Origin: an uncultured Halobacteria archaeon
GTDB lineage: Bacteria > Pseudomonadota > Gammaproteobacteria > UBA9214
Direction of reading: 5' to 3'
Length of the DNA stretch: 64,000 bases
Assembly: GCA_963768575.1 (NCBI GenBank)
Contig: CAVYIJ010000001.1
Location: 273,214 to 337,213, forward strand
The notes under the pieces were generated by a model that did no database searches, had not been told where the DNA came from, and worked only from the letters and a program-made list of their open reading frames with translations. This document shows, one piece after another, positions 43,149-64,000 of the stretch. The first letter of the stretch is position 1. Each line of letters starts with the position of its first letter. The translations under genes were made by a program, and so were the position numbers.

Positions 43149-43877
43149 TCAGTCAATCAGCCATTCGCCCATGCGTGCACGTAGCCGGATCAGTGCCTGC
43201 CCGTGTATCTGGCAAACCCGGGACTCGCTCACACCGAGTATTTCCCCGATTTCACGCAAATTGAGTTCCTCGTCATAGTAGAGAGCCATAACCAGGCGTT
43301 CGCGTTCCGGCAGACCCTTGATTTCATCAGCCAGGCCCTGCTTGAAATCACTCTTCTGCAAGGTCTCGAGCGGTTGGTTGGGTTGGCGATTGGCGGGTGG
43401 ATAGCCTTCGACAGAAAGCGTGCCGGGGTCCTCGAAACTGAAAATGCGGCAGCCGGTCGAGTCCTGCAGTATCTTGTGGTATTCCTCGAGCCCCAGTCCC
43501 ATCTCCTTTGCCACCTCGACATCACGTGCGTCACGACCGACCTCGTTTTCAATCTTGCGCACTGCCTCGGCTACTTCACGCGCCTTGCGATGAACAGACC
43601 TGGGAGTCCAGTCGGTTCTGCGAATTTCATCCAGCATTGCACCTCTAATTCTTATGCCTGCATAAGTTTCGAAACTGGCCCCCTGCTCCGGGTCAAACTT
43701 TCTGGATGCCTCGATCAGGCCAATCATGCCGGCCTGAATGAGATCGTCCGCCTGTACGCTGGCTGGCAATCGACTCATCAAGTGATAGGCAATTCGCTTT
43801 ACCAGGGGTTCATGCTGTACCACAAGCTCGTTGCTGGTAGCGAATTCAGCGCCCGATTTCACCGCATTGGATTTCAT
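43149..43877 (-). CDS. fliA: Flagellar RNA polymerase sigma-28 factor FliA
   Basis: 242-aa ORF with sigma-70 region 2 (LIQAGMIGLIEASRKFDPEQGASFETYA), region 3 and region 4 (LNLREIGEILGVSESRVCQIHGQAL). Confidence 0.93.
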   Translation of the reverse strand: MKSNAVKSGAEFATSNELVVQHEPLVKRIAYHLMSRLPASVQADDLIQAGMIGLIEASRKFDPEQGASFETYAGIRIRGAMLDEIRRTDWTPRSVHRKAREVAEAVRKIENEVGRDARDVEVAKEMGLGLEEYHKILQDSTGCRIFSFEDPGTLSVEGYPPANRQPNQPLETLQKSDFKQGLADEIKGLPERERLVMALYYDEELNLREIGEILGVSESRVCQIHGQALIRLRARMGEWLID

Positions 43878-44800: not shown

Positions 44801-45009
44801 CAATAGCTGTCCCGGATTGTCGGCAGGTGATTGCCTGCTAGACAAATTGCAACATGCATACCAAACCGCACAAATAACCGTGTAAGTGTCCCGAAGGATC
44901 ACAACTTATTGTTTTAACAGGGAGTTAACAGTGCATCGCGGGAGCGGCACACAAAAGGACTTACGTCACATTTTTGACAATTCGAACGAGCTGACGGGTA
45001 TTTGACAAG

Positions 45010-47565: not shown

Positions 47566-48987
47566 TCAGGGCTGACGCTGCATACCATATTTGCGCAGCT
47601 TCTCTACCAGGGTAGTACGCCGCATGCCAAGACGTTTGGCGGCATGGGCCACGACACCGCCTGAATCAGCAAGAGCCTGCTTGATATAGCTCACCTCAAG
47701 GCAACTCAAATGCTGCTTCAGATTCATGCCCGCACGTGGCAAGCGGGGGTCCAGATCATGTGATGTTACCGGTGAACCGACAAGTGCATCGACTGCCTGC
47801 TCCGTAACATCATCAGTATTCTGGCGAAATTTTTCCGGCAAATCACCGGCATCAACAACGCCGTACGGATGCAGAATCGCCATGCGCTCGATCAGGTTCG
47901 CCAGTTCCCTGACATTTCCCGGCCAGTTGTACTGACAGAGGGCATAAATGGCCCCCGGCGACAGGCGGACCGATCCACGTTTCTCATGCTCGATGCGGCG
48001 TACCAGCTCGTTGACCAGCAGCGGTATGTCTTCAACCCGCGCGGATAGCGACGGCATTTCTATGGGAAACACATTCAACCGATAGAAAAGGTCTTCGCGG
48101 AACTCGCCCTCCTCGATCGCCGCTTCGAGATTTTTGTGCGTGGCCGCAAGAATTCGTACATCAGATTTAATACTCTGGTTGGACCCGACCCGCTCAAAGG
48201 TGCGCTCCTGCAAAATACGCAATATTTTCACCTGCATCTGCAGGCTCATATCGCCTATTTCATCAAGAAATAACGTACCGCCTTCCGCCATCTCAAAGCG
48301 ACCCTGGCGATCATTGATCGCGCCCGTAAACGCCCCCTTCTGATGGCCAAACAATTCTGACTCCAGCAGATCAGCGGGAATCGCTCCGCAATTGACCGGA
48401 ACAAATGGCTTGTCGCGGCGGGATGAATAGTAATGCAGGTTTCTTGCAATGACTTCCTTACCGGTACCCGACTCGCCAAGTATCAGGACATTTGCATCGC
48501 TGTCAGCTACTTGCTGTATGAGTTTACGCACATCCTGAATAGCACGACTGCTGCCAACAAGGCTGCGGAACAGTTCTACCGGGCGCTGATCGGATGGTGT
48601 ACTCCGGTGGGATTGCGTATAGATTTCGGCCTGGTGCAATGCGTTGGTGAGATGCGTGTAATTCGGCGGTAATTCCAGACGCCCAAGGATGCATGATCCC
48701 GGGTCAATCGTAACTGTCGGCTCCTTGCCTTTTTTACTCAGCAGGTAAATCGGCAGGTGTTCGTCGAAGTTATGTATTTCGTTCAGGAGCGTAGCAAGTG
48801 AATGATCGGACTTGCATGAACCAAGCATGACAGCCTGTAGTTGCTCACCGTCTTCGATTACCTGCTGCCAACGTGTCGTATCGTCCACCAGCACCGGGTT
48901 GGAGCCGATAAACTTCAGAACGGATTGCAGCTCTTTTCCTGCAGCTGGATCAGCTTCTAGTACAAGTACCCTGGACTCTGTTTGCAT
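47566..48987 (-). CDS. fleQ: Sigma-54-dependent flagellar master regulator FleQ
   Basis: High identity to Pseudomonas FleQ across the AAA+ domain ([32 protein letters not shown]) and the C-terminal HTH. Start set at [13 protein letters not shown]. Confidence 0.92.
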
Positions 48988-49439
48988 TCGGCTTCCTGGA
49001 CGATTTATTACCCTGGCCCCTGCGGAGCCGTAAGGCATTGAAACGTTCTTGTTAATCCCCTAGATTTGAGACGGATATTAACCAGTCCGTCAAGGTAATG
49101 TCAAAACCATCTGTGACCTGCGTTGCAAAAACTTCCGGCGTCCTCCCGCAGAATTTTACCTGTTGTAATCAAAACGATTTTCTGTTGATAAAAACCTGCA
49201 GAGCCGGGCCCCTATCAGCACGCCCGGCGAAGACAGGCGGTCGACTACAGCCGATCACCGGTCAGCCACACGCCAGGTATCCCCCGCGACACCCGCAAGT
49301 GAGAGGCGCGTGGCGGACAGACTGTCATAATTTTGCCACTTTGTGCGCGAGACCTCAAAACCGGGTTAAATCCGGTGATTGAACAGACGATATCTTAAAT
49401 GAGCCCGGCACAGACCGGAGGTAACAATGCTCAGGAATA

Positions 49440-49625
49440 TTGACCGACATTGCACAGGCAGAAAAGACAATAATGCTGATACCCAACGAACTAAAACCCG
49501 AATGTGATACCTGTCGTATCGCTGCCATACGCAGCCAGCTGGATGAGGATCAGTATATCGTCGATCCACAGCAGATAGCCAACAAGTTCATAGACCTCGA
49601 AGTTGCAATCTATGGGCACAATTAG
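49440..49625 (+). CDS. Possible FlgM-like anti-sigma-28 fragment (61 aa, TTG start)
   Basis: The C-terminal half, IAAIRSQLDEDQYIVDPQQIANKFIDLE, resembles the sigma-28-binding C-terminus of FlgM (..AIRNGELKMDTGKIADALI..). It lies near fleQ/fleN/fliA. It is short, with a non-ATG start and no clear RBS. Confidence 0.3.
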   Translation: MTDIAQAEKTIMLIPNELKPECDTCRIAAIRSQLDEDQYIVDPQQIANKFIDLEVAIYGHN

Positions 49626-49767
49626 CTCGAAGTGACCAATCCGGGTCATATCCTCTCAACGAATATTTCCGCCTGTCTGCCCGACTCGTCAATGGTACAG
49701 ACACTGCCCCTGATGCTAGAATAAGGCCGTTTATTCAACAGGCAGTAAACTGCCCGGAACCAGACAC

Positions 49768-49843
<76 letters not shown>

Positions 49844-49857
49844 TTTAACACTGTATA

Positions 49858-49934
49858 GCCCCGGTAGCTCAGCTGGATAGAGCAAGCGCCTCCTAAGCGC
49901 TAGGTCGGACGTTCGAATCGTCTCCGGGGCACCA
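49858..49934 (+). tRNA. tRNA-Arg (anticodon CCT)
   Basis: 77 nt GCCCCGGTAGCTCAGCTGGATAGAGCAAGCGCCTCCTAAGCGCTAGGTCGGACGTTCGAATCGTCTCCGGGGCACCA; anticodon loop CTCCTAA. Confidence 0.88.
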
Positions 49935-50424
49935 ACTAATTCCCCCGACCGTACAGACGGTTCGAACGTCCGACGTTTCTATCAGCCCCGTTCGACAAGC
50001 GGCGTAAGCCGCGCAGAACGTCGTCGCGAAGCGACGGCGGCCCCGAAGGGGTGAGGCCCAAAGGGCCGAATAATCGTCTCCGGGGCACCAACTAATTCCC
50101 CCGACCGTACAGACGGTTCGAACGTCCGATGCGAGGCGCATGGCGATGCGCCGAGTAGAATCAGTCCCGTTCGACAAGCGGCTTGTCGTTCCCGCGCGTC
50201 CCTGTGCTCCACGACATAAGTACATCCCTGTACAAAAGCCGCGCACGACTGCAGGGATGCAGGAGGTAGAGCAACGCAGGGAACAGTTGCCGAGAACGTC
50301 GTCGCGAAGCGACGGCGGCCCCGAAAGGGCTCAGGGCATCATGCCCTGAGTAGTATCGAGCCCGAATAATCGTCTCCGGGGCACCAACTAATTCCCCCGA
50401 CCGTACAGACGGTCCGAACGTTTC
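49916..50424 (+). repeat. Three direct copies of a ~60-bp unit (last ~20 nt of tRNA-Arg plus ~40 nt downstream) with partly conserved hairpin-rich spacers (att-site-like scars)
   Basis: Copies at 49916-49975, 50067-50129 and 50363-50421 share CGAAT(A)ATCGTCTCCGGGGCACCAACTAATTCCCCCGACCGTACAGACGGTTCGAACGT. Spacers share GAACGTCGTCGCGAAGCGACGGCGGCCCCGAA(A)GGG and TCAG(C/T)CCCGTTCGACAAGCGGC. Confidence 0.8.
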
Positions 50425-50426
50425 AT

Positions 50427-52640
50427 TCAAGTATTGCGCCGCGCGCCGATGACATTCTGCAACTGCCCGATCCGGGTCAGCACCCGGCTTAACTGGCCGA
50501 TATCGGTAATCTCCAGCGTCAGGTTCATACGCGCTATCCCGTCACTGGCATCCGTCCTGGTATTGGCGCCGACCAGGTTGACCTTTTCGTTCGCCAGCAG
50601 TGCGGTAATGTCACGCAACAAACCGGACCGATCGTATGCTTCTACGATGATATCGACCTGGTAGCCCGCTTCATCGGGCAGCCCCCAGTCGACTGCTATC
50701 AGGCGATCGCGATCGTCACCCTGGAGTCGCAGAATATTGCCGCAGTCCTGCCTGTGGATCGACACGCCACGCCCGCGCGTGATGTAACCGATAATGGGAT
50801 CACTGGGCACCGGCCGGCAACAACGTGCGGTCGTCGTCATCAGGTTACCGACGCCCTGGATATCAAATTCACCCGCTCCGGTGTCCCTTGTCTTGCGTCT
50901 GGTCCGCGACTGTTGCGGTTTCAGGGTGTCCTCACGAGGGATCAGCTCACTCAGGGAACGCGTCAGCTGGCCGGTCGTGATTTCGCTGCTGCCCAATGCT
51001 GCGAGAAACTCGTCAACCTGCCTGCCCCTGAAACGTTCCGCAATCTTTTCAACCGGAATATCCGAAATACCCACACGCTGCAGTTCCTTGTCCAGAATTG
51101 CACGTCCCGCAGCCAGGTTGTGCTCATAATCCTGACGCTTGAACCAGGCACGCACCCGTGAGCGTGCCCTCGAGGTATGCAGGTAGCCTAGGTGACTATT
51201 AAGCCAGTCTCTGCTCGGCCTGCCCTGTTTCGAGGTCAGAATTTCCACCTGTTCGCCATTGTTCAATTGCCAGGTCAAGGGCACTATCCTCCCGTTGACT
51301 TTCGCGCCACGGCAACGATGGCCAACCTCGGTATGCACCGCATAGGCAAAATCCAGTGGTGTCGCCCCCTGCGGCAGGTCTATGATCCGTCCCTGTGGCG
51401 TCAACACATAGACGCGATCCTGGAATGCTTCAGATTTGAACCGGTCAACGAAGTCGGCGGCTGTGCGCTCCTCTTCCTTCCATTCCAGCAACTGGCGCAA
51501 CCAGGTAATTTTCTCCTCGTACCCCCTGTCGGGGCCACCGCCTTCCTTGTAGCGCCAGTGTGCCGCAACCCCCAGCTCTGCATGACGATGCATTTCATAT
51601 GTTCTGATCTGCACTTCAAGATTCAGGCCGTCCGGACCGACCACAGCGGTATGGAGCGAGCGATAGAGGTTTTCCTTGGGGTTGGCGATATAGTCGTCGA
51701 ACTCTTTCGGGATATGGCGCCACAGGCCGTGCACGAGCCCGAGCGCTGCGTAGCAGTCTTTTTCCTCGTCGACCAGTATCCGCACGGCGCGCGTATCGAA
51801 AACCTGGTCGAAACTGAGATGTTTGCGCTGCATCTTCCGCCAGATACTGTAAATATGCTTGGTGCGGCCGGTAACAGTCGCATTAATACCGGCAGCTGCA
51901 AGTTCCTGCTCGATTATTTCGATAACGCGCAATATATAGGCTTCAAGTGATTCACGGTCCCCCTCCAGCTGTTTCGCGATCGACTGGTAGGCCTCCGGCT
52001 CCAGGTAGCGCATCGACAGGTCTTCCAGCTCCCACTTGATCTGCCAGATGCCAAGGCGATTGGCGAGCGGCGCGTAAATATCCAGCGTCTCCTGCGCAAT
52101 TCGTTTGCGGCGATCCGCGTCCAGGTGGGCCAGGGTTCGCATGTTATGCAGCCTGTCCGCCAGCTTGATCAATACCACGCGCACATCTTCCGCCATTGCA
52201 AGCAGCAGCTTGCGCAGGCTCTCGGCCTGGTCCGCCTGGTTGCCGTCCACGGTGTCTTGCTGGCGAAACTCTCCAATGCGCTCCATCTTGGTCACGCCAT
52301 CAACCATTCGCGCAATGGTCGGTCCGAAATCGTTACCCAGGTCGGTCAGTGTTATGGACGTATCCTCGACTACGTCATGCAGCATGGCAGCGACGAGTGT
52401 CTCGTAGTCAAGTTTAAGTTCATGAAGAATTTCAGCGACTGCCAGCGCATGCAGATAGTAGGGTTCGCCGGACTTGCGAAGTTGCGCATGATGCGCAGTG
52501 CAGGCAACCTCGATCGCACGGCTTAATGCTTCGCCATGCTCGGCGCTGTGCCCGGCCAGCAGTGCATCGACCCGCAATTGTGCGGTCGCATCGATGCATC
52601 CTGCTCCTGAGCCACCCTGATTGCCGGTCACTTCCACCAA
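50427..52640 (-). CDS. relA: RelA/SpoT-family (p)ppGpp synthetase/hydrolase
   Basis: 737 aa. HD motif intact (MLHDVVEDT). The synthetase region is very close to RelA (KHIYSIWRKMQRK...AELGVAAHWRYKEGG). TGS and ACT regions present. No rpoZ upstream. Confidence 0.9.
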   Translation of the reverse strand: MVEVTGNQGGSGAGCIDATAQLRVDALLAGHSAEHGEALSRAIEVACTAHHAQLRKSGEPYYLHALAVAEILHELKLDYETLVAAMLHDVVEDTSITLTDLGNDFGPTIARMVDGVTKMERIGEFRQQDTVDGNQADQAESLRKLLLAMAEDVRVVLIKLADRLHNMRTLAHLDADRRKRIAQETLDIYAPLANRLGIWQIKWELEDLSMRYLEPEAYQSIAKQLEGDRESLEAYILRVIEIIEQELAAAGINATVTGRTKHIYSIWRKMQRKHLSFDQVFDTRAVRILVDEEKDCYAALGLVHGLWRHIPKEFDDYIANPKENLYRSLHTAVVGPDGLNLEVQIRTYEMHRHAELGVAAHWRYKEGGGPDRGYEEKITWLRQLLEWKEEERTAADFVDRFKSEAFQDRVYVLTPQGRIIDLPQGATPLDFAYAVHTEVGHRCRGAKVNGRIVPLTWQLNNGEQVEILTSKQGRPSRDWLNSHLGYLHTSRARSRVRAWFKRQDYEHNLAAGRAILDKELQRVGISDIPVEKIAERFRGRQVDEFLAALGSSEITTGQLTRSLSELIPREDTLKPQQSRTRRKTRDTGAGEFDIQGVGNLMTTTARCCRPVPSDPIIGYITRGRGVSIHRQDCGNILRLQGDDRDRLIAVDWGLPDEAGYQVDIIVEAYDRSGLLRDITALLANEKVNLVGANTRTDASDGIARMNLTLEITDIGQLSRVLTRIGQLQNVIGARRNT

Positions 52641-52988
52641 GCCACCACCTGTTAGCGCCCGCCTGCGGCGATAGTCTGCGCCCTGCCCGGCGACTTCGCT
52701 ATGCAGGACGTTTTAAGGATCTGTTTTAATTGAGAATAATCGAATAAGGCTGCAACGGCAACAGGGCCACTGGAAGAGTCGGTTCACAGTTGCCGCAACG
52801 GCTACCTGGCCATGTCCGGCGATGAGACGACTGCTGGCGTGATTTTGCAGGCAGACGACTTGCCGTCGATCGGTGCAGCGTGTCATCACGCAGGTTGCCA
52901 GGCCGTATCAGGACATGGCTGTCGGGGCATTATCGAAGCGCCCTCCGGTCAGCCGCGCGGCCTGCCTGCCCGCCGGGCCTCCTGGTGG

Positions 52989-54527
52989 TTAACCGGAGCT
53001 TGATTGCGACCGCGCATCATCCCGCTTGTCGCGCTCTGGCTTGACGACGGCGAGCGGCACTGCGGGTTGCTCTTGCGGGGTCAATTCTCCTGATGGGTCC
53101 GTAAAATTATTGTTCAGGATTTGCACATACTGATTGGCCTCGGCAATGACCTTGTGCAGGCGCTTGCGTGTACGTGCATTCCAGCCGAGTGGCAGGCGCC
53201 TGAATATGCTGATCCATGGCCGGGAATTGCGCATGAAGGCATTGCGCAGGCGACCGCGTTCAAGTCCCGGCGCAATCTGGTTGTCGATCTGCCGCAGCAT
53301 GCGGCCCGTCATCAGGCGCCGAATCCTGAAATGGACAAATGCCAGCAGGCAAAGAGCCGCAACGAATGCAATGGCAGTCCAGGCAATATTGTTGGTCGAA
53401 CCCTGCCACCAGGCTGGACTGCTCCAGTGCCAACCTTCCCGCATACCCAGCCAGCCCGCAGCGAACACGGCAATAATCGTAAAAACTCCCAACATGGCCG
53501 CGTCCGCCCAGAGTACACTGCGACGCCATTGCGCACGGTACCCGGTCAGCCTCGGGACCAGTTTTTCTTCGATGTGATAGGCCAGTTTTTCAAGCGTCCC
53601 GGTAATCCGGTAGGCGCGTTCCACGTCGACACCCTGTATACGATCGTGAATCGCGGAAAGATCATGATCACGCTTGGCTTCATAGCGGGAACGTAACGCT
53701 TCGTTCTCGATCGCGACGGCGACTTCCGGATTGTAGATACAATAAAACTTGCCGGCTGATAAACCTTCCTGCGCAAGCGCCCGCTGCCACGCGCCTACCA
53801 CTTCCTCCGGATTGTCATCCCTGGCAGTGGTATCCATCTGGTTCAGGACAAATACAAACTTTGTAGCGTCCGAACGGTGTATCGTGTCGCCAACGAGGTG
53901 TTTCAGGGTGTCACGCATGGCCCCCGGCTCCGGATGACGCGCATCGAAGAAAACCAGCACCAGGTCTGACAGGTCGATTATATGATCGGTCAGTCGCAAG
54001 GTGGCGTTGCGCTGCGAATCCGCGTCGAAACCAGGTGAATCGATGATGATACGACCGCGGAGTTTCTCGCTCGTGCTGGTTTTTAGTTGCAGGTATGAGT
54101 CGACACGACGGCCTTCTCCATTGGCTACTTTCTCAAGCTCATTGCTGATCTGGTAGAAAGGAAAGCGGGGATCGGCGTCGAGTGCCGTCCCGGGCAGTGC
54201 ATGCGCATGATGCTCGCTGCCGAAACAGATGACGGTGAATTTGTCGTCGACAGCCTGATTTCCGGTTTCTTGCAGTTTCTCGCCGAGGAAATGATTGATG
54301 AAGGTGGACTTGCCCGCAGAATAGGTCCCCAGCACCGATATCATCGGCCACCAGGATATCTGGGTCGCAAACGACTGTTCAGCATCCAGCAGTCCGAGTG
54401 AACGCCCGATTTCGTCCAGGTGGCGATAGCTTTGCACTACCGAAACCAGCACCGGACTTTCTTTCCTCAGGTGCGTCTCGAGGCTCTTGAGACGTTGCCG
54501 GATCGTTTTTCCTGCCCTGGACATCAT
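52989..54527 (-). CDS. Dynamin-family GTPase with two C-terminal TM helices (bacterial dynamin-like protein)
   Basis: 512 aa with G1 GTYSAGKSTFIN, G3 DSPGF and G4 NQMD, in dynamin-like order and spacing. Two hydrophobic helices near residues 360-420. Confidence 0.7.
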   Translation of the reverse strand: MMSRAGKTIRQRLKSLETHLRKESPVLVSVVQSYRHLDEIGRSLGLLDAEQSFATQISWWPMISVLGTYSAGKSTFINHFLGEKLQETGNQAVDDKFTVICFGSEHHAHALPGTALDADPRFPFYQISNELEKVANGEGRRVDSYLQLKTSTSEKLRGRIIIDSPGFDADSQRNATLRLTDHIIDLSDLVLVFFDARHPEPGAMRDTLKHLVGDTIHRSDATKFVFVLNQMDTTARDDNPEEVVGAWQRALAQEGLSAGKFYCIYNPEVAVAIENEALRSRYEAKRDHDLSAIHDRIQGVDVERAYRITGTLEKLAYHIEEKLVPRLTGYRAQWRRSVLWADAAMLGVFTIIAVFAAGWLGMREGWHWSSPAWWQGSTNNIAWTAIAFVAALCLLAFVHFRIRRLMTGRMLRQIDNQIAPGLERGRLRNAFMRNSRPWISIFRRLPLGWNARTRKRLHKVIAEANQYVQILNNNFTDPSGELTPQEQPAVPLAVVKPERDKRDDARSQSSSG

Positions 54528-54743
54528 GGTATTTCCCTGCCGGTTATCAAGACGCCCGAATTGTGTGCAAACGCGATCCGTGCAAGCGGAAAGTCAGCAT
54601 GTCACTCATCATCCAGTACGGGCCGGTCACATCCTGCACGATGTTGTTCGTGTCACTCTTGTCATTCCGTATCAGACGCATCGGTAGAGTCATGCGCCGG
54701 GCCCGGACTATAAACGTGGCCTTTTTCATTACTGGCTCAATAC

Positions 54744-55352
54744 CTAGAACGCACCTTCCGCGCCGCGTTTCATTATATCCAGTATCACGTCCTTCACCTC
54801 GTTTGCCTCGTCAAACAAATCCTGCGGCAATTTTTTACCACCATGAATCATCATGTCCATGTTGAGAGTGTAGATCCATAATTTTCCGCTCTTGTCCTCG
54901 ATCAACGATAACCTGCATGGCAGGTAGGCCGAGTAGGCATCCGAGTAGGCAACCATTTTTGCAGCTGTCAGTGGATTGCAGAACATGTAGATTTTAAGAA
55001 ATCTTTGAGGTTCACCGGTCATCGCCTCGACCTGTTCTGATAACGGTAGTTCACCGACATTCTTGATATTGTGTTCGTTGGCAACAAAACGCATTGTCTC
55101 TTCAACTTCTTCGGCGCTCAAACCATCAGCGACCGGGGTTTTCCAGACAGTCGCTTCTGCCCCGTTGCCGGTCGATATGAGCCCCTTGACCATATCGGCA
55201 TAAACCGTGGGTGCATCTTCGTCAAAGGACGACAGGTTGCCGAGGTCCTTGAAATTCTGCATTCCGAAGTCATAAGCGAAAACGATCCATATCAGCCCGG
55301 CTACAACCGCGAGCCCGACAAGCGCGAACAAATTCCAGAACAATTTGAACAT
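54744..55352 (-). CDS. Membrane-anchored DUF302-domain protein
   Basis: 202 aa with an N-terminal TM anchor (FKLFWNLFALVGLAVVAGLIWIVFA) and a C-terminal region with a DUF302-like motif (KIYMFCNPLTAAKMV...YLPCRLSLIEDKSGKLWIYTLN). Confidence 0.55.
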   Translation of the reverse strand: MFKLFWNLFALVGLAVVAGLIWIVFAYDFGMQNFKDLGNLSSFDEDAPTVYADMVKGLISTGNGAEATVWKTPVADGLSAEEVEETMRFVANEHNIKNVGELPLSEQVEAMTGEPQRFLKIYMFCNPLTAAKMVAYSDAYSAYLPCRLSLIEDKSGKLWIYTLNMDMMIHGGKKLPQDLFDEANEVKDVILDIMKRGAEGAF

Positions 55353-55378
55353 TTTTGACTCCTTTTCGGACTATGCGG

Positions 55379-56493
55379 TTACGGGTTTTCCGGGGACGTT
55401 TCCGTGATGTACTGTTCGAGCTCCTCGGAACGGGGACTTTGCAGCCCCCTGAGGACATCAACCAGCTGCCGCGCCTGATCGACGAGGCCCTCATCGGCAA
55501 GCCGCTTGCCTGCTTCAAAATACGACGCGGAAGCGAGCGTCCACTTGCCTTGCGAGAAATACATGTTGCCGAGCTCCCCGTAACCATCCGGATTATCCGG
55601 ATCAGAAGCTATCAGGGCCTGATAATTTTTCTCGGCATTTATATAGTCCCGCAACCAGTATGCCTCGCGTGCTGCGGCGAGCAACTGGTAAGGAGTTCCA
55701 GCCGGCTTGTCGGTGGCTGCTTTTGCCGGCCGCTTGATCACAGACGCATCCACATCGGGCGCGGGCTGCGTGGCGGCTGGCGCGGTACTTTCCGGGCGGG
55801 GCACTTCTGCCGTCATCGTGGTCCCCTCAAGTGCCGGTACAGCACTACTGCCAGCTGCTGCTGTCGCTTGCGCAACACTGGCAGCGGTGCTGCTTGCCGG
55901 TTTCGACCGGCTTCCGGCAACTGCGGGGAGATCCGGCGACCCGGCCATTTCGTTTTCACGGGTTTTAGTCACGGCAGCCGGATCCTCATCCGCGGAAACC
56001 TTGTCGACCGTCGTAATTGGTGGTGTAACTTTCACCGCATCGCCAATTTGTCGGGCAACCGGTTCAGGTATGCTGTCTGCAGCATCGGTATCTTCTGCAA
56101 CAGCCGCTTTATCATTCGTCGCCGGGGCCGTCGGTTCTGTAGCTGCCGTACTTGCCGCTGGCTGCACACTGGTTTTATCGTCCGCATCCGGTGCGGCGCC
56201 AGGCTGTGGCTCACCTGCGTCGACCGGCCGATTTCTGCAACCGGCGCCTCCCCTGCATCCATTTCCTGCGCCTGCATGGAGGACTGGACAGGCTGTTCGC
56301 CACTTGCCGCATCACTTGCCGTATCACTATCACTGTCTGTACTGCTTTCAAACACCAGGAATTCGGGCAGTTCCAGGTCAGGAAACAGATCGCCCCGATA
56401 GATCAAGCCAAGAGCCAGTATCGCAACCACGACCAGTGCAAAGCCATGACTTAGAATTCGTGCAAAAAGATTCATAACAAATACTCCTGCCAA
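55379..56493 (-). CDS. TM-anchored protein with acidic Ser/Asp-rich and Ala/Pro/Thr-rich disordered regions and C-terminal TPR repeats; apparent 1-nt frameshift near 56225-56235
   Basis: The N-terminal piece 56032..56493 (TM helix then ESSTDSDSDTASDAAS...) and the C-terminal piece 55379..56167 (low-complexity then TPR: AYWLRDYINAEKNYQALIASDPDNPDGYGELGNMYFSQGKW) are in frames offset by 1. The C-terminal frame stays open upstream to 56312 and reads plausible low-complexity sequence. Confidence 0.6.
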
Positions 56494-56495
56494 TA

Positions 56496-57158
56496 TTAGT
56501 TCTGATTACCGGCAACATGCGGGTAAAGCGTGGCCGCAAATTCCCCGAATTCTTCAGCCGCCTTGCCACTCGGCCACATCTCGAAAACTGCCAGGCCTTC
56601 GCTGAGCGAGCGCCTGAAACCGGTCCTCATACGTAACCGCTGCGACATCACAACATCGATGCCTTTCAGCATTTTCAAGGCCTCTTCAGTTTCTTTCGTT
56701 TCGCGAATTGATTTGTTGGTATCCGCGCGGTTTACAAATGCGATCGTGCGTTGCTTGCCATTGAGTTTAACAGCTTCCGTATCGGGACCTATGATATGCA
56801 GGAATCGCTGGGTTGCCCAGACATCTGCCTGGCTCGGTGGTACCGGCACCAGGACCCGGTCGGCGGATGTCAGGGCCTCTTTCATAGCGGCCATATTTGC
56901 CGCCCCGACATCGACCAGTACCTCGCAGTCAGTATGAGACAGCAGCTGGTCCCTGAGAACCGCACGAACGGAATGTATCTTCAGCTGCGGATTGTTACCG
57001 ATTTCCTTTCGCAACATGGCCAGGTCACTGAACGTGCACTGCGGATCAAGATCATACCCGACTACCCTGCAACCGTGTTTTTCAAGCCAGATCGCAAGAT
57101 TGAACGCGATTGTGCTCTTGCCGGAGCCGCCCTTCAGGTTTGCAATTACCGTAATCAT
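56496..57158 (-). CDS. Orphan ParA/MinD-family ATPase (deviant Walker A KGGSGKST)
   Basis: 220-aa ORF MITVIANLKGGSGKSTIAFNLAIWLEKHGCRVVGYDLDPQ... No parB-like partner or parS visible. Stop abuts the start of the TPR protein gene. Confidence 0.85.
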   Translation of the reverse strand: MITVIANLKGGSGKSTIAFNLAIWLEKHGCRVVGYDLDPQCTFSDLAMLRKEIGNNPQLKIHSVRAVLRDQLLSHTDCEVLVDVGAANMAAMKEALTSADRVLVPVPPSQADVWATQRFLHIIGPDTEAVKLNGKQRTIAFVNRADTNKSIRETKETEEALKMLKGIDVVMSQRLRMRTGFRRSLSEGLAVFEMWPSGKAAEEFGEFAATLYPHVAGNQN

Positions 57159-57246
57159 ATTACATCGCTCTGACTATCAAGGCTCTGATTCAATGATCGC
57201 ATGTACCAGAATTATTGTGGAACACCTGCCCGGGTGACTGGCCGGA

Positions 57247-57292
57247 AAAGTAAAAATGAGCCAGAACACATCTCTGTGCCTGGCTCATTGGT
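57247..57292 (-). terminator. Rho-independent terminator downstream of the Gly/Tyr-rich protein gene
   Basis: 10-bp stem AATGAGCCAG/CTGGCTCATT (57256-57290), followed on the minus strand by TTTTACTTTT. Confidence 0.55.
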
Positions 57293-57304
57293 AGGCAAAC
57301 CGGG

Positions 57305-57730
57305 TTACTGTGCGGCTGCCGGTGCTGCCGGTGCAACCGGTGCTGCCGGTGCATACCCGTAAGGTGCGCCGCCATAACCGGGATAGCCGCCATAGCCGCC
57401 ATAGCCGCCAGGATAGCCGCCATAGCCGCCAGGATAGCCGCCATAGCCGTACGGGCCGCCGTAGCCGCCGCCATAGTAGTCGCCATAACCACGACCATAG
57501 CCACGACCATAACCCCGGCCACGACCGCTGCCGCTACCGCTCATGTTGAAGCCGAAATCGCCGTCCATGAAGCCGTCGCCCCAGCCGTCGCCAATGCCAC
57601 TTCCATAGCCATCGTTGTAGCCACGGTTGCCCCAGGGGCCCCAGTTACCCCAAGCCTGGGCCGCAGAAAACGGCACTGCCATGAGTGTGGCCACAGCAGC
57701 GGCACAAAGTGATTTTTTGATAATACTCAT
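57305..57730 (-). CDS. Secreted glycine/tyrosine-rich low-complexity protein (sulfur-globule-protein-like)
   Basis: Signal peptide MSIIKKSLCAAAVATLMAVPFSAAQA. The rest of the 141-aa ORF is almost entirely GY/GW/GR repeats (AWGNWGPWGNRGYNDGYGSG...GRGYGRGYGRGYG...GGYPGGYGGYPGGYGGYGGYPGYGGAPYGY), encoded by 21-bp DNA repeats. Confidence 0.75.
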   Translation of the reverse strand: MSIIKKSLCAAAVATLMAVPFSAAQAWGNWGPWGNRGYNDGYGSGIGDGWGDGFMDGDFGFNMSGSGSGRGRGYGRGYGRGYGDYYGGGYGGPYGYGGYPGGYGGYPGGYGGYGGYPGYGGAPYGYAPAAPVAPAAPAAAQ

Positions 57731-57865
57731 TTCGATATCTCCTTATTGTTTAAGCAGAACTACAAATAGTTCCGCACATACTCCCCGAAACCTATTCCAA
57801 CCAACAATAACAGGGAGTGATTATTGTCGACCTAACAACCTGGCTAACAGGTCATTAAATTCATT

Positions 57866-58468
57866 TCACCAGCCAGGACCCGGAAAAATGCCAGGGACAC
57901 CCCAGCCAGGAGTGCCGTAACCGGGAGCATACCCCTGGTTAGCGTACCATTCCGGCTGTAACTGCCAGACTGGCTGCGACGGTTGCCGGCGTGACGGCCG
58001 ATTGCCGTTATCCATGGCTCCCCAGGGCCTGCGCGTCACTGGTTTCCCGGCCTTGCCCGGCTCTGCAGCGGCGTATTCCGGCGCCTGCTGAACTTGCCAG
58101 GGCGAGTACATCTGGCTCGGGGAGCTGGCTGGTTTACTTTCAATTTCTCGCTTGAAGGTTCCCGGTGTTTGAGTAGCGGCACTCCATGGACGACCCTGCT
58201 CTTCGGTCCGCTGCTGATTGAAGTTGTATAAATAATCTGGAGGAATTCCCGGCCTGCCGAAACCTGAAGTTTGCCCTGACTGTTTTGGCGTTGGATACCA
58301 CTCCTTGACCGTGACGGGTTTGGACACTGCGGGTATCCCGGTATTGACAGACGAATCCGCACCGGTCTCGTCTTTTGCACAAGCGCCGGCAGTCACCAAC
58401 ACAGTGACCAACAATAGTTTGAGGAACAATGAAATATCAACATGTACTGCATACGGCCTCATGATCAA
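57866..58468 (-). CDS. Secreted (possibly lipo-) Pro/Gly/Trp/Tyr-rich low-complexity protein
   Basis: 200-aa ORF. Hydrophobic N-terminus ending ..LVTAGACAKDE, a possible lipobox. Pro/Gln/Trp-rich body with a C-terminal YAPGYGTPGWGVPGIFPGPGW. Confidence 0.6.
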   Translation of the reverse strand: MIMRPYAVHVDISLFLKLLLVTVLVTAGACAKDETGADSSVNTGIPAVSKPVTVKEWYPTPKQSGQTSGFGRPGIPPDYLYNFNQQRTEEQGRPWSAATQTPGTFKREIESKPASSPSQMYSPWQVQQAPEYAAAEPGKAGKPVTRRPWGAMDNGNRPSRRQPSQPVWQLQPEWYANQGYAPGYGTPGWGVPGIFPGPGW

Positions 58469-58497
58469 CTTGATGCCTGCATTTCCTCCCTGACGAA

Positions 58498-60051
58498 TCA
58501 GGGCGCCGGATACGCGCCACGGCCATAAGGTGATTGCTCCTCGTAGGCGGGTGACGGTACTTCTTCTTCCGGTCTGTTTGCGGGGCCGCGATAATATCCA
58601 AACGGCGGCATGTTCATGTAGCCCGGCGTCCCGGGTTGCCTTGACTGCCAGGCAGGCCCCGGGTAATTAAACCCGGCGGCCGGTGGCATCATTCGATCGT
58701 ACTGACCGGGCACCGGTGGCTGCATCGCAGGCGGTGGTGCGGGCCGGCGATCGTCCGTACCGGCGGCCGGGGGCATCATGCGATCGTACTGACCGGGCGC
58801 CGGTGGTTGCATGGCAGTCGGTGGCGCGGGCCGGCGATCGTCCGTACCGGCGGCCGGGGGCATCATGCGATCGTACTGACCGGGCGCCGGTGGCTGCATG
58901 GCAGGCGGTGGTTCAGGCCGGCGATCGTCTGCTATGCCGGCTGCGGGGGGCATCATGCGATCGTACTGACCGGGCGCCGGTGGCTGCATCGCAGGCGGTG
59001 GTTCAGGCCGGCGATCGTCTGCTATGCCGGCTGCGGGGGGCATCATGCGATCGTACTGGCCGGGCACCGGTGGCTGCATGGCAGGCGGTGGTTCAGGCCG
59101 GCGATCGTCTGCTATGCCGGCTGCGGGGGGCATCATGCGATCGTACTGACCGGGCGCCGGTGGTTGCATGGCAGGCGGTGGTTCAGGCCGGCGATCGTCT
59201 GTTATGCCAGCTGCGGGGGGCATCATGCGATCGTACTGACCGGGCACCGGTGGCTGCATGGCAGTCGGTGGCGCGGGCCGGCGATCGTCTGTACCGGCGG
59301 CCGGGGGCATCATTTTGTCAAAGTGCCCCGGACCAGCGGGCGGCTGCCCGGTAGCCGTGATTGCAGGTGGCGAGACAGTGCCGGTTACTGTCTGTTCGCC
59401 GGCTGACATTTGGTCGATCATAGGTTTGGCGCTGTCCGGTTGCGATGCTTCTACCGTGGTAACGGCTGATAATGGCTGTTCCTTTACGGCCGCGTCAGCC
59501 GGCAGCCCGCTTTCCACACCCGCCACCGGCGAGGCAGGTATTTCGTCTGCGGCGAGGTCTTTCGCCTGCTGCTGCCCATCTTCAGTGCCGGACAGCCGTG
59601 CTTCATCCGCCATGGAATCCACAGCAATGTCAGACTTCGCGCCCGCCACCGGCGGTGCAGACAAATTGTCTGCGGCGAGGTCTTCTCCCTCTTGCGGCAC
59701 ATCTTCAGCGCCGGACAGCCGCGTTTCATCCGCCCTGGTATCCACAGCAATGTCAGCCTCTGCGTCCGCTACCGACGGTGTGTCATGCACTTGTTCAGTG
59801 GCGTCGGGATCCTGCTGTGTTTCCGCATCAACAACGTTGGTAATCGGTGGTGTAACCCCCTGTCCCGGCACACGCGGATCGATATGCACAGGCTGGTAGG
59901 GGCCGGACGGTGGCGGCGCAGACACTACGGACCATTCTTTTGAATAGGAATAACCCGGCCCTGATTCAGCAACAAGACTGCATGGCAGCGCCGCAGTCAT
60001 CACTACCAGCAAGAAATTACCAATTGACATTATTGGAGACTGAATGGTCAT
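58498..60051 (-). CDS. Secreted acidic protein with ~8 tandem 30-aa Pro/Met-rich repeats (PGQYDRMMPPAAGIADDRRPEPPPAMQPPA)
   Basis: 517-aa ORF: a signal peptide (MSIGNFLLVVMTAALPCSLVAES), an acidic Asp/Ala/Glu-rich region, then near-identical 30-aa repeats encoded by 90-bp DNA repeats at ~58680-59340, and a Tyr/Gly/Pro-rich C-terminus. Confidence 0.75.
   Translation of the reverse strand: MTIQSPIMSIGNFLLVVMTAALPCSLVAESGPGYSYSKEWSVVSAPPPSGPYQPVHIDPRVPGQGVTPPITNVVDAETQQDPDATEQVHDTPSVADAEADIAVDTRADETRLSGAEDVPQEGEDLAADNLSAPPVAGAKSDIAVDSMADEARLSGTEDGQQQAKDLAADEIPASPVAGVESGLPADAAVKEQPLSAVTTVEASQPDSAKPMIDQMSAGEQTVTGTVSPPAITATGQPPAGPGHFDKMMPPAAGTDDRRPAPPTAMQPPVPGQYDRMMPPAAGITDDRRPEPPPAMQPPAPGQYDRMMPPAAGIADDRRPEPPPAMQPPVPGQYDRMMPPAAGIADDRRPEPPPAMQPPAPGQYDRMMPPAAGIADDRRPEPPPAMQPPAPGQYDRMMPPAAGTDDRRPAPPTAMQPPAPGQYDRMMPPAAGTDDRRPAPPPAMQPPVPGQYDRMMPPAAGFNYPGPAWQSRQPGTPGYMNMPPFGYYRGPANRPEEEVPSPAYEEQSPYGRGAYPAP
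58680..59340. repeat. Tandem 90-bp coding repeats (about 7 copies)
   Basis: CATCATGCGATCGTACTG recurs at 58771, 58861, 58951, 59041, 59131 and 59221 (period 90), with degenerate flanking copies at ~58686 and ~59306. Confidence 0.85.
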
Positions 60052-60098
60052 AGTTTATTCTTCCCGAATATGTTGTGCCTGGAGACAGGCCACTGCAG

Positions 60099-63000
60099 CT
60101 AGGTCAGATCCTGTTTCAGGCGAATTCCGCGTCGCTTTCTGCCGACTATATCAGTCGCATCATCAACGCTTTCATCACTGTCTTGCGTTTCCGTTTCTAT
60201 AACATCCATTTCCTCGACCGGGGTCGGCGCCATGTCCGGCGTCGGGGACGATGCACTGGTGGAGTCCATTGCCACCTGCTGTGGCGTTGATGACTCCTTG
60301 TCGTTGCCAGTCTTCGCTACTTCCCTCGGCGGGGGCGTGCCGCCTTTAGTGGCTGTCGCCGGTGTTTCCCTTGGCGGGGGCGTGCCGCCTTTAGTGGCTG
60401 TCGCCGGTGTTTCCCTTGGCGGAGGCGTGCCGCCGTGCTGGCGGGTCCTCGCGGTGGCTGTCGCCGGTGTTTCCCTTGGCGGGGGCGTGCCTCCTGCGGT
60501 GGCTGTTGCAGGCACTTCCCTCGGCGGGGGCGTACCCCCGGACGGTGGCTTCTCTCTTGGCGGCGGCGGAGTGCCCCCGGACGGTGGCTTCTCCCTTGGC
60601 GGCGGCGGAGTACCGCCACCACGTGGCGGGGGTGGCGTACCACCACCCGGCGCTGGCGCTCTCGGTGGCGGCGGAGTACCACCACCACCGCCGAACTTGC
60701 CGGCGATCCCCTTGAAGCCCATGCCAATCAGGGTAAATACCGCCTTGATCACGATGAAGATCCAGCTGAAGAAAGTAAATATCCCGCCCCAGAGTCGCAT
60801 CAGCAGCGGCGTGCCCGGTGCGCCGGGGGCAGCGTCAGGCTCAGGCTCAATATGTTCAATCCTCTGGTAGGCGGAGCTGATTGAAACGGTACCGTCATCA
60901 GAAGTTTCCACGTAAAACTGTTTCTTCGCACTGATACAGCCCAGTGGAATAATCAGCAGTGCCATGACAGTCGCCACACCGGTGCCGAACATCAGGCTTA
61001 TTGCCATGCCGTTGAAAATGGGATCCTGGATAATGGCAAAGGCGCCCGCCATCAGGGTAAGCGAGGTAATGAAAATCGGGCGCATACGCAGTTCCGCACC
61101 CCTGACAGCGGCCTCGGTGACCTCGTGGCCTTGCGCGACCTCGAGTTTCACGAACTCGACAATCAGGATCGACTGTCGAACGATAATGCCGCCCAGCGCG
61201 ATCATGCCGATCATGGAGGTTGCGGTGAACTCTGCACCCATGATCCAGTGACCCGGAATGATCCCCATCATGGTGACTGGAATCGGTGACATGATCAGAC
61301 CGGCCAATGCAAAATTCTTGAACTCCCAGACGATCAGGCCGTAGATCAGCACCAGCGCGGCCATGAAGGCGCCGCCCATATCACGGAACGTTTCGTAGGT
61401 AACGGTCCACTCGCCGGTCCACTCGTAGCCAGAACTGGTCGAGTCGGCACGGGTGCCGATGAATGTCCATTCGCCGGGTTTGCCCAGGATCGTCTTGGGC
61501 ATGGTTTCCAATTTCACGCCATCCGGGGCCGTGTATTCCTCCACCAGGTCCTCGATATGGAGCATGCCGTATATCGGCGCACCCAGGCGGCCTTCCATTT
61601 CACCGACCACATATTCGATATCGCGCAGGTCCTTGGTATAGAGGACTGGCTCCACATACCCTTTCTTGAATTGGCCGAGTTCAGACAGCGGAATGGTCCT
61701 GCCATCCGCGGTCGGAATCGGCAGGTCACCCAGCCGCGAAATCTGTGAACGCACCGCCAGCGGGATCTGCATGACGATGTAGGTCGGCTCAAGCACCGTT
61801 CCCCGCTTGATATCACCCAGTTTAAAACTACCCATGGCCATGGCCAGGCTGCCGTTGACCGTATCCACCGAGATTCCGCGACGCACCGCTTTTTCGGTAT
61901 CAACCTCGAACCGCCAGAACTCATAAGGGTCTGCCATGTATGTGTCGACATCGACCACATTCTCGACCTGTTCGAACATGGCCATCAAATCACCAGCCAC
62001 CTGGCGACGCGTTTCCGCATCGGGACCATACACTTCTGCGACAAGCGTCTGCAGCACCGGTGGTCCGGGCGGCATCTCGACCACGGCAATGCGGGCACCC
62101 ATGCTGTCAGCGATTGGCTTGAGAAGATGCCGGGCAACAACAGCAATTTCATGGCTGCCGCGGTCACGGTCGTTCTTGTCAGTCAGCATGACAAGCAGGT
62201 CACCTTCCCACGGCCGCTGTCGCAGGTAGTAATGCCTGACCATTCCATTGAAGTTGAACGGCTGGGCGGTACCGGCATAGGTGGTCACCGCAGTCACTTC
62301 GGGAATCTGGCGTACGGCCTCAGCCAGCGCCAGGGTGACATTCGCGGTATCCGGCATCGCCGTGCCTTCCGGCATGTTGACGATAACCGTGAATTCCGGC
62401 TTGTTGTCGAACGGCAGCATCTTGACCGGCACGTGCTGGGTATAGAATGTCACGCACAGCAGCGCCGTCATACCGATGATACCGAACAGGAACAGCAGGC
62501 CCAGCTTGCGGTTCTCGACCAGCGGCATGATGATCGGTCGATACATGCGACTGATGCGCGCGTGAATTTTCTTTTCTTTCTCTTCCGCTTTCTTCAATGC
62601 CGCGAAACGCGGCGCGACCTTTACTGCAAACCAGGGCGTAAACACGAACGCTGCAATCAGCGAGAAGAACATCGCCGAGGAACCCAGCACCGGGATCGGC
62701 CGCATGTACGGTCCCATGAGACCGCTGACCCAGCCCATCGGCAGGAGTGCGGCGATAATCGTAAAGGTCGCCAGGATGGTCGGGTTACCCACCTCGCGGA
62801 CCGCATCGATGGCCACCGCGACACTGGTCTTGCCCTTCATTAACCAGTGCCTGAAGATATTCTCCACCACCACGGTCGCGTCATCGACCAGGATACCGAT
62901 GGAGAAAATGAGCGCGAACAGGCTGACGCGGTCGATGGTGTAATCCACCATCATGGCCCACCAGATGGTCAGCAGGATCACGACCGGGATAACCGTGATA

Positions 63001-64000
63001 ACCACGAAGGCGGCACGCAAGCCGAGACCGACCAGGCAGAGAAGCGACACGATCACCGCCGCCTCCATCATGGCGCCGAGCAGCTCATTCACCTTGTCGT
63101 TGGCGGTCTTGCCGTAATCACGGGTCACCGTCACGTTGACATTGGCCGGTATCAGGCCGGCTCTCCCTTTCAGGTCTTCGACCTTGGCCAGTATCGCCTT
63201 GGCCACTTCGACACCGTTGGTGCCTTCCTTTTTGGCGATGGCAACGGTAACAGCGGATTCCCCCTCGGCCTTTCCGGTGTCACCGGTGTAGGCGGGCCCG
63301 GTGAAAAACGTGACCAGTTGATGCGGCTCGGCGGATTCCTGCGATACCTTTGCCACGTCACGGACATAGACCGGCGCATCGTTGCGGATGCCGATGACCA
63401 GGCGCCCGATTTCCTTGGCGGTTGTCAGGAAAGACCCGGTCCTGACCGAGAAAGACGTGCCGCTGGATTCGACATCACCCGCTGATTTTTCGGCATTCGC
63501 GGTCTGGATGGTCTGTGCGACCTGCTGCATGCTGATGCCATACCCGGACAGGCGTTCGGGCATGACCTCGACCTTGACCTGGTCTTCCCGGCCACCGACG
63601 ATGAAGCCCTTGCCGACATTTTTCACCCCGCCCAGACGTTGCAGCAGGTCGAGCGCAAGCATGCGCAGCGAGCCGTCATCGACATCCGGGGACCAGAGCG
63701 TGAGCGTCACCACGGGGACATCATCGACGCCAACCGGTTTTACCAGCGGCTGCGAGACATTCGGCGGAATCTTGTCCATGTTGGACTGGAGCTTGTCATG
63801 CACCTTGACAAGGGATTCACCCATGTCTTCGCCAACCACGAAGCGTACAGTCACCATTGCCTTGCCGCGTTCTGTCGCTGTATATGTATGGCGGACACCG
63901 GGAATTTCGAGCAGCAGGCGCTCCAGCGGCTCGGTCACCAGGCTGGAAACCTGTTCAGCCGAAGCACCCTCGTAGCTGGACGAATACGTCGATCATCGGC
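60099..64000 (-). CDS. RND-superfamily efflux transporter (AcrB-like 12-TM core, 5' end beyond window) with an extra C-terminal TM helix and ~200-aa Pro-rich repeat tail
   Basis: RND motifs (ILVDDATVVVENIFRH; IVRQSILIVEFVKLEVAQG) and two large periplasmic loops. After TM12 comes a further hydrophobic segment LLMRLWGGIFTFFSWIFIVIKAVFTLIGMGF, then ~10 GGTPPPPR(E)/TPATATKGGTPPPRE repeats and an acidic tail. The N-terminus is off-window; the first in-window residues align to roughly AcrB residue ~60. Confidence 0.85.
60290..60720. repeat. Tandem ~42-bp coding repeats in the RND C-terminal tail
   Basis: Reiterated GGCTGTCGCCGGTGTTTCCCTTGGCGGGGGCGTGCCGCCTTTAGT and variants on the plus strand, encoding the GGTPPPPRE.. 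repeats. Confidence 0.8.

Follow-up and report, generated by a model that had tools for sequence, protein, structure and literature searches.

The 64,000-nt stretch analyzed here (contig CAVYIJ010000001.1, positions 273,214 to 337,213; hereafter the window) carries a gene cluster for a resistance-nodulation-division (RND) permease with a long C-terminal tail, three secreted low-complexity proteins, an orphan ParA-like ATPase, membrane-anchored proteins, and a dynamin-like protein (DLP). A first-pass annotation had singled out four of these genes, at positions 52989 to 57158, as a co-oriented block, and they are indeed all encoded on the minus strand. Transcription-wise upstream of them lie the genes for the three secreted proteins, one of which belongs to the Pfam family SGP, and the gene for the long-tailed RND permease; that annotation had also placed these genes next to the block. 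Comparison with related loci revealed that this permease ends in an invariant peptide, RRGIRLK, and is followed by the ParA gene, and our data tentatively point to the tail of the pump as a client of ParA. The features are listed below in the direction of transcription (TM, transmembrane; ORF, open reading frame; c4, a TM and Met-rich protein of the cluster).

60099..64000, minus strand: HAE-type RND permease (Pfam ACR_tran, 432 bits), N-terminus past the window end
60699..60806, minus strand: extra hydrophobic segment of the RND permease, following TM12 (hydropathy; residues ~1045-1080 of the listed ORF)
60102..60698, minus strand: disordered RND tail (translation, tandem repeats)
60114..60134, minus strand: RRGIRLK C-terminal peptide of the RND permease, 4 residues before the stop codon
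58498..60051, minus strand: secreted 517-aa repeat protein (N-terminal hydrophobic signal by hydropathy)
57866..58468, minus strand: secreted 200-aa protein, possibly a lipoprotein, P/W/Q/G-rich (translation and hydropathy)
57305..57730, minus strand: 141-aa SGP-family protein, Gly/Tyr-rich, with signal peptide (Pfam PF17228)
56496..57158, minus strand: orphan ParF-like ParA/MinD ATPase, 220 aa (Pfam, NCBIfam)
55379..56475, minus strand: TM/acidic/Ala-Pro/TPR gene, interrupted in the window
54744..55352, minus strand: TM-anchored DUF302 protein (Pfam, 46.8 bits, and N-terminal TM)
54547..54729, minus strand: c4 relic, 60 aa (BLASTP to c4 of relatives)
52989..54527, minus strand: DLP, 512 aa (Pfam Dynamin_N)
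50427-52640, minus strand: relA

Conservation of the cluster

One genome per species was scanned with an alignment of the DLP, which gave 47 ortholog loci (designated by L numbers), and these were then analyzed by tblastn with the window proteins and by ORF clustering. Across about 30 loci of sulfur-oxidizing Gammaproteobacteria, we found a constant set of genes coding for a membrane fusion protein (MFP), the RND permease, ParA, and c4. In 18 loci, the DLP has both RND and ParA within 10 kb, and all 18 are from sulfur oxidizers (Thiodiazotropha, an Escarpia symbiont, Sedimenticola, Thiocapsa, Thiohalocapsa, Thioalkalivibrio, and metagenome-assembled genomes [MAGs]). A 19th locus, L002, has kept ParA, TPR, DUF302, c4, and DLP, with no RND in its 10-kb flank. 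The same operon was recovered from ParA-anchored (L068, L069) and from RND-anchored (L070-L073) contexts. The general order is a 131-aa gene (some loci), MFP, RND, one to four secreted low-complexity proteins, DUF4412 (some loci), ParA, TM-TPR (some loci), TM-DUF302 (some loci), c4, and DLP. The 131-aa gene upstream of MFP had been considered SCP2-like, but it gave no Pfam match and the label was dropped. The DLP gene is in most cases adjacent and occurs in two layouts, either last and co-directional or divergent from the MFP gene, and the preservation of its adjacency in both argues for a functional link.

The first-pass annotation had noted secreted repeat proteins and an RND exporter beside the four genes, and the recurrence of the same neighborhood across about 30 loci supports a conserved, functionally linked group of genes to which all of them belong. 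The four genes at 52989 to 57158, however, do not form the conserved unit that had been suggested but are the downstream portion of a larger cluster of sulfur-oxidizing and sulfur-storing Gammaproteobacteria: Chromatiaceae and Sedimenticola-type loci keep MFP, RND, ParA, c4, and DLP alongside each other without TPR or DUF302. In the loci of sulfur oxidizers, ParA and DLP usually co-occur; TPR and DUF302 are lineage-specific extras. The block can be called nonsyntenic only in comparison with the textbook enterobacterial gene order; within its own clade it is syntenic, since L002, L068, and L069 hold the order of the window, including relA, flgM, and a FleQ-like gene.

The spacing between ParA and TPR, TPR and DUF302, and DUF302 and DLP is 20, 26, and 216 nt, respectively, and the GC content is even throughout the region. 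A scan for promoters and terminators returned counts equal to those of shuffled sequence and is therefore uninformative on operon structure. A plasmid-type partition locus was considered and rejected: there is no ParB or ParG gene, parS, or repeat array, the GC content is uniform, and the block is kept on chromosomes.

The RND tail and the orphan ParA

The RND permease has the ACR_tran core of the HAE type. In the window, the ACR_tran match begins at profile position 62, and therefore, the true start of the protein lies past position 64000. The same holds for the position of the MFP gene, which is directly upstream of RND in L068 and L070-L073. Within 10 kb, none of the called genes codes for an outer-membrane factor, although such a factor could be encoded elsewhere in the genome. 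RND orthologs are 51-60% identical in at least 20 loci of sulfur oxidizers. The protein in the window consists of a core of ~1000 aa followed by a C-terminal extension of ~270 aa. The extension begins with the extra hydrophobic segment, which in 138 RND orthologs is 20-27 aa long, carries a Y..RG.FLL motif, and has basic flanks on either side. It continues into the disordered tail, which in the window is built from GGTPPPPRE-type repeats, followed by an acidic stretch. Across the orthologs, the tail comprises 100-270 aa, and in most relatives it is K/A/P-rich and histone-H1-like; the Marichromatium ortholog has a weak match to the histone-like Pfam model HC2.

The peptide RRGIRLK marks the C-terminus of the pump: in six-frame translations it occurs once per locus, exclusively at the RND C-terminus, in 22/22 loci, and it sits 0-12 residues from the RND stop codon. 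Besides the window, the loci that have it fall into L006-L048 and L068-L073. Among RND orthologs of Chromatiaceae, it is present in 114/120 sequences; the others are two near-variants and four apparently truncated, partial, or frameshifted sequences. A scan of metagenomes for RRGIRLK codons returned 80 loci, of which five were RND tails and 75 chance matches. In all five (5/5), a ParA gene follows 1-3.5 kb downstream. Indeed, ParA was found downstream of RND in 22/22, 4/4, and 5/5 loci of independent samples, wherever the sequence sufficed, and in L011, L012, and L027 it directly follows RND at a distance of 31-103 nt.

The ATPase itself is of the ParA/MinD type, as first proposed, with the deviant Walker A motif LKGGSGKST and matches to the Pfam models CbiA, AAA_31, and MipZ. 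The best NCBIfam model is ParA_partition, with an end-to-end alignment and 123 bits, which is under the cutoff of 180. The D.D.Q and D.G motifs are kept in an alignment of 20 orthologs, in which we found no MinD-type C-terminal amphipathic helix. Its description as an orphan also stands: we found no parS (allowing up to three mismatches) in the window, no centromere-like repeats, and no ParB- or ParG-type gene in about 30 loci.

For a contact with ParA, the RND tail would have to be in the cytoplasm, and this is probably the case. A cytoplasmic tail is favored by the even-numbered TM core, by the basic flanks on either side of the extra segment (3.1 and 4.8 K/R per 15 aa in RND orthologs), and by the net basic charge of the tail (28 K/R versus 15 D/E). 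With RRGIRLK invariant at its C-terminus and ParA downstream wherever the sequence suffices, the RND permease is, as far as sequence can tell, a better candidate for the ParA client than the TPR protein.

The TPR protein had been the initial candidate for a ParA adaptor or cargo. Its predicted parts are all there (a TM segment, an acidic stretch rich in Ser and Asp, a linker rich in Ala and Pro, and TPR repeats at the C-terminus), but they do not form a single ORF in the window: the TM and acidic part (ATG at 56475, ORF 56032-56493) and the Ala/Pro and TPR part (55379-56167) are in different frames. The ORF is intact in L074 and L075 (365 aa), L068 (325 aa), and L002 (402 aa). L074 and L075 are contigs near-identical to the window that encode an identical DUF302 protein; compared to them, the window has a 1-nt deletion (~56225/56226) and four substitutions within ~22 nt (~56205-56226) and is otherwise identical. 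The frameshift stems either from the assembly or from a lesion specific to the strain.

An McdB-like role of the TM/IDR/TPR protein (IDR, intrinsically disordered region) as ParA adaptor or cargo, with the four genes as a self-contained positioning and remodeling module, would fit the gene order, since TPR starts 20 nt after ParA in the window, L074, L075, and L068 and also directly follows ParA in L002, L010, L016, L018, L024, L032, L041, and L044. It would also fit the long disordered linker, a property of many ParA adaptors. However, the clusters of Chromatiaceae and of the Sedimenticola type have ParA but lack this gene, and in the window it is interrupted next to an intact ParA. Furthermore, the N-terminal signal-anchor with its acidic C-flank predicts, according to the positive-inside rule, that the IDR and the TPR domain face the periplasm; the ortholog in L044 has three K/R before the TM helix. 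Only about 10 residues of the protein would then be cytoplasmic. The patchy distribution, the interruption, and a predicted topology out of the reach of ParA make the TPR protein a poor adaptor candidate, and we regard this explanation as having only a slim chance of being correct.

The other membrane protein that could serve as a partner of ParA is c4, which is near-universal in the cluster and full-length in most of the lineages other than the clade of the window. There, its N-terminal region is cytoplasmic and is followed by a TM helix and, in the periplasm, a Met-rich part with FMPW at the end; its sole Pfam match is a weak one to DUF948. In the window, the 216-nt spacer between DUF302 and DLP holds the 60-aa relic of c4, which was recognized by BLASTP matches to a small ORF of L068 (1e-08) and to the C-terminal end of c4 in L002 (0.006). 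As a partner, c4 would connect a structure in the periplasm with ParA, the DLP, or both. Consistent with such a role, the cytoplasmic N-terminal region has a conserved ..FE.SAKRWE.. motif, and c4 directly follows ParA where TPR and DUF302 are absent (L011, L012, L019, L023, L034, L035, L037, L045, and L070-L073) and elsewhere directly precedes the DLP gene. In L005, a Chromatiales MAG, c4 (967-2055) is extended at the N-terminus by ~200 aa, a Lys/Ala/Thr-rich and histone-H1-like stretch similar to the RND tails of other lineages; a Lys-rich extension of this kind would be in line with a ParA partner. In the clade of the window, however, c4 has decayed to a relic of 60-92 aa without a TM helix, and ParA is still 77-93% conserved. 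In addition, the N-terminal region of c4 is poorly conserved save for the membrane-proximal motif. All in all, a role of c4 as the ParA partner is improbable.

It is also conceivable that RRGIRLK is no signal for ParA at all and instead binds the DLP or, if the tail is periplasmic and TonB/TolA-like, a periplasmic TPR domain or a component of the cell wall or outer membrane, or that it is an RxxxR-type c-di-GMP motif. TPR domains commonly bind terminal peptides. The tail in the window has polyproline-type repeats reminiscent of a TonB spacer; RRGIR does fit RxxxR, and GGDEF/EAL genes are present near several loci. Yet RRGIRLK is invariant, in contrast to the patchy TPR gene and to a DLP that in some cases is not linked; the basic flanks and the net basic charge of the tail speak for the cytoplasm, and a lone RxxxR has little predictive value. 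We therefore consider a binding partner other than ParA decidedly unlikely.

The DLP, the secreted proteins, and a possible link to sulfur globules

The GTPase encoded at the end of the cluster was correctly assigned to the dynamin family by the first-pass annotation: it matches Pfam Dynamin_N with 57.4 bits (cutoff, 27) over profile positions 1-167 of 168. An Era/EngA-type GTPase was considered as an alternative and rejected, since the Era and Der models match the P-loop alone, with 26 bits compared to cutoffs above 116. The DLP has a G1 motif GTYSAGKS, a G3 motif DSPG, and a variant G4 motif NQMD. The two TM helices that had been predicted correspond to hydrophobic segments at residues 337-363 and 378-403, separated by a loop of 15 residues; their outer flanks are basic, which indicates a TM hairpin, and from these flanks both ends of the protein are predicted to be cytoplasmic. 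The protein thus comprises N-terminal helices, a G domain (63-264), long helices, and the TM hairpin (337-403). An AlphaFold2 model based on 20 sequences had a pLDDT of 57.7, which rose to 66.7 with 121 sequences. The latter model has helices at 4-44, 276-359, and 378-476. Its best fold match was LeoA (E 2.8e-4), followed by Drp1, but as the confidence of the model is moderate, the fold search is weakly informative. The PDB entries closest in sequence, EHD4 and EHD2, match the first part of the G domain. The family has more than 5000 homologs, and orthologs in Nitrosomonas, Azospirillum, Campylobacterota, and Desulfobacterales are without the RND/ParA part. An anti-phage defense system was also tried and rejected: the PADLOC scan gave a weak LeoA match for the DLP only, and ParA, TPR, DUF302, and c4 were without matches.

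The DUF302 protein was confirmed as such by Pfam (PF03625, 46.8 bits, compared to a cutoff of 23) and has the N-terminal TM anchor that had been described. This anchor is an N-in signal-anchor with an acidic C-flank, and the DUF302 domain is therefore predicted to face the periplasm. Orthologs are present in L002, L006, L027, L032, L036, L044, and L068. DUF302 genes have been found in sox clusters that lack soxCD (PMC5037610).

The first evidence for a connection to sulfur globules comes from the secreted proteins. The protein encoded at 57305-57730 matches the SGP model PF17228 with 42.1 bits (cutoff, 26.7), and SGP-type genes occupy the same position of the cluster in Thioalkalivibrio L036 (36.1 bits, above the cutoff), L032, L044, and L068, the matches in L032 and L068 being near the threshold. 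The 517-aa and 200-aa proteins have no Pfam match. The former contains ~7 copies of a 30-aa unit, PPAMQPPAPGQYDRMMPPAAG...DDRRPE, encoded by a 90-nt tandem repeat (58673-59313; 7.2 copies, 92% identity); a second repeat in the same gene is 123 nt long and present in 2.1 copies (59519-59780). Proteins of the 200-aa type hold the same position in relatives. In Chromatiaceae and Thiodiazotropha, proteins with a YRFRP motif, for which there is no Pfam model, fill the slot that is used elsewhere by SGP-type proteins. As a side observation, the secreted proteins encoded after RND share [YF]RFR[PG] or RFRPLT.[KR]E in L006, L007, L019, L034, L035, L037, L045, L048, L070, and L071.

Further evidence comes from the genomic setting. 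Among the sampled species, the RND/ParA part is confined to sulfur oxidizers, and three Chromatiaceae loci have fccAB, the genes of flavocytochrome c sulfide dehydrogenase, no more than 6 kb away from the RND-ParA cluster. Furthermore, according to a passage in a study on Allochromatium vinosum, sgpD adjoins a gene for a hydrophobe/amphiphile exporter, and SgpD localizes to sulfur globules (Kümpel, Grein and Dahl 2023, PMC10386293). A. vinosum is not among the named RND matches. Taken together, the association of the cluster with sulfur is suggestive. With regard to gene order in Chromatiaceae, L070 (2199-8427), L071 (1650-8173), and L073 (1-7256) carry, after the DLP gene, nadA, a gene for a NapC/NirT-type cytochrome, an uncharacterized gene, and fccAB, all of them no farther than 6 kb from the cluster.

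From these features, we tentatively propose, with somewhat less than even confidence, that the cluster is an envelope-spanning sulfur-globule module in which the RND tail, and not the TPR protein, is the client of ParA. Somewhat more doubtful still is its most novel version, in which ParA on the nucleoid would position and partition the periplasmic sulfur globule via the tail peptide of an RND/MFP complex that spans the inner membrane and contacts the globule coat, and the DLP would shape a membrane pocket. In the proposed mechanism, the RND/MFP complex would reside in the cytoplasmic membrane and mark the places where sulfur globules, coated by the secreted proteins of the cluster, are laid down or tethered in the periplasm. 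On the other side of the membrane, RRGIRLK of the probably cytoplasmic tail would dock to and stimulate the co-operonic orphan ParA. ParA would then couple the pump and its periplasmic attachments to the nucleoid, with the result that the sites are spaced and shared between daughter cells. The TM-hairpin DLP may remodel the cytoplasmic membrane around the site, and the TPR and DUF302 proteins would be lineage-specific accessories in the inner membrane that face the periplasm.

Several points weigh against this proposal. Should the extra segment be a genuine 13th TM helix, the RND tail could lie in the periplasm, and the tail in the window, being Pro-rich, TonB-like, and not basic, is the weakest case for a cytoplasmic location. 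The contact between ParA and the tail is deduced solely from the pairing of the two genes and from the example of basic peptides that activate ParA. The DLP family is far broader than the cluster; in Caldichromatium, the DLP is apart from the cluster, and in Thiocystis minor it has neither RND nor ParA within 10 kb. The A. vinosum exporter is at most a putative ortholog of the RND of the cluster, and the link comes from one sentence of the respective study (PMC10386293). Most secreted proteins of the cluster have no match to the SGP model, and since all carriers are related Gammaproteobacteria, the sulfur link is confounded by phylogeny.

The last two points would also be expected of a general envelope or lipid module without a tie to sulfur globules, in which RND exports a hydrophobe or lipid, the DLP repairs or remodels the membrane, and ParA merely localizes the pump; the sulfur link would then reflect shared ancestry. 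In line with such a module, the RND proteins also match the MMPL lipid-transporter model, and DLP orthologs without the cluster occur in non-sulfur bacteria. Against it speak, however, that two distant lineages have SGP-family genes inside the cluster, that FccAB is encoded nearby in Chromatiaceae, that among the sampled species the RND/ParA part was seen only in sulfur oxidizers, and that, as far as the cited passage goes, sgpD lies beside an exporter gene (PMC10386293). We consider such a general module possible but unlikely.

If the proposed sulfur-globule module is real, it would be the first case of a ParA whose client is a transmembrane pump, and positioning of the ParA type would then reach to clients in the membrane and to cargo outside the cytoplasm. 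The module would also be the first cell-biological machinery assigned to sulfur globules and would give a role to a large DLP family that lacks characterization. To our knowledge, no mechanism is known for the nucleation, sizing, spacing, or inheritance of sulfur globules, of which only the coat proteins SgpA-D have been described. The cluster offers concrete candidates for such a machinery: a tailed pump, an orphan ParA, a membrane-anchored DLP, and periplasm-facing anchors. At least one carrier is in culture, an isolate of Thiocapsa roseopersicina, and genetic tools exist for this species.

The remaining genes of the window are housekeeping genes (clpX, tig, cysS, purF, folC, trpB, asd, leuC, aroC, secDF, tgt, and queA). 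An Rfam scan of 48900-60300 found two tRNAs and nothing else. These are tRNA-Ala(CGC) and tRNA-Arg(CCT), which together with three subsequent copies of a 60-nt repeat (92-100% identical) occupy 49768-50421 before relA. The copies are at 49910-49969 (overlapping the 3' end of tRNA-Arg), 50066-50125, and 50362-50421 and look like integration remnants or a small repeat element. A second ATPase of the ParA/MinD family (342 aa, 43874-44902) has MinD-like matches below the cutoff; nearby are a GGDEF-EAL gene and a gene for a FleQ-like sigma-54 activator, and in relatives flgM. It is probably a FlhG-type flagellar regulator unrelated to the cluster. Finally, a polar landmark protein of the FimV/HubP family (714 aa) is encoded at 21269-23413, with its core and C-terminal domains both above the cutoffs.

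Comparison with known systems

The component families of the cluster are all known; what is new is their combination, the invariant tail peptide of RND, and the strict pairing of RND with an orphan ParA. The first-pass annotation knew of no described system with such a combination, and our literature search found none either: the full-text literature on sulfur globules with dynamin, ParA-like proteins, or efflux gave no published account of the cluster.

The closest biological parallel on the periplasmic side is offered by SgpA-D of A. vinosum. The 141-aa protein in the window likewise belongs to the Pfam SGP family, and the place of sgpD beside an exporter gene, as given in the passage cited above (PMC10386293), corresponds to the position of the secreted proteins in the cluster. 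The SgpA-D literature that we searched held no tie to ParA, a dynamin-like protein, or the RND tail motif.

With HAE-type RND/MFP systems (AcrAB-like, MMPL/HpnN-like), the pump of the cluster has in common the ACR_tran core and, in relatives, the upstream MFP gene. In contrast to them, it has a unique C-terminal extension with a hydrophobic segment, a disordered tail, and RRGIRLK, and the RND in the window scores much lower than any of the named NCBIfam subfamilies requires. The DLP shares the full-length Dynamin_N match with the bacterial DLPs LeoA, BDLP, DynA, and IniA and with EHD ATPases, and the hairpin by which it is probably anchored resembles the membrane anchoring of BDLP and mitofusin-type proteins. 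However, it is much shorter (512 aa), has a true two-helix TM hairpin, and carries NQMD as its G4 motif instead of the usual N/TKxD.

The closest solved sequence relative of the ParA in the window is ParF of plasmid TP228 (4dzz, E 6.8e-07). Unlike ParF-ParG and the small type Ib/Ic partition ATPases, the ParA of the cluster is chromosomal and conserved across families, and its locus is without a ParG- or ParB-type gene, parS, or centromere-like repeats. In this respect, it is closer to McdA-McdB of carboxysomes, PpfA-TlpT of chemoreceptor arrays, PomXYZ, and BcsQ, in all of which a small ParA with a deviant Walker A motif is encoded beside its presumed client, as in the cluster. We found no homology to McdB, TlpT, PomX/Y, or BcsE/R. 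Short basic peptides activate ParA ATPases, and the candidate client in the cluster has a long disordered region and a short basic peptide-like element of that kind. A precedent for a ParA/MinD protein that localizes an export machine of the inner membrane is BcsQ, which acts on cellulose synthase. In comparison with McdAB-like systems, the candidate client in the cluster is an RND pump with a C-terminal peptide instead of a soluble adaptor with an N-terminal one, and the presumed cargo would be periplasmic.

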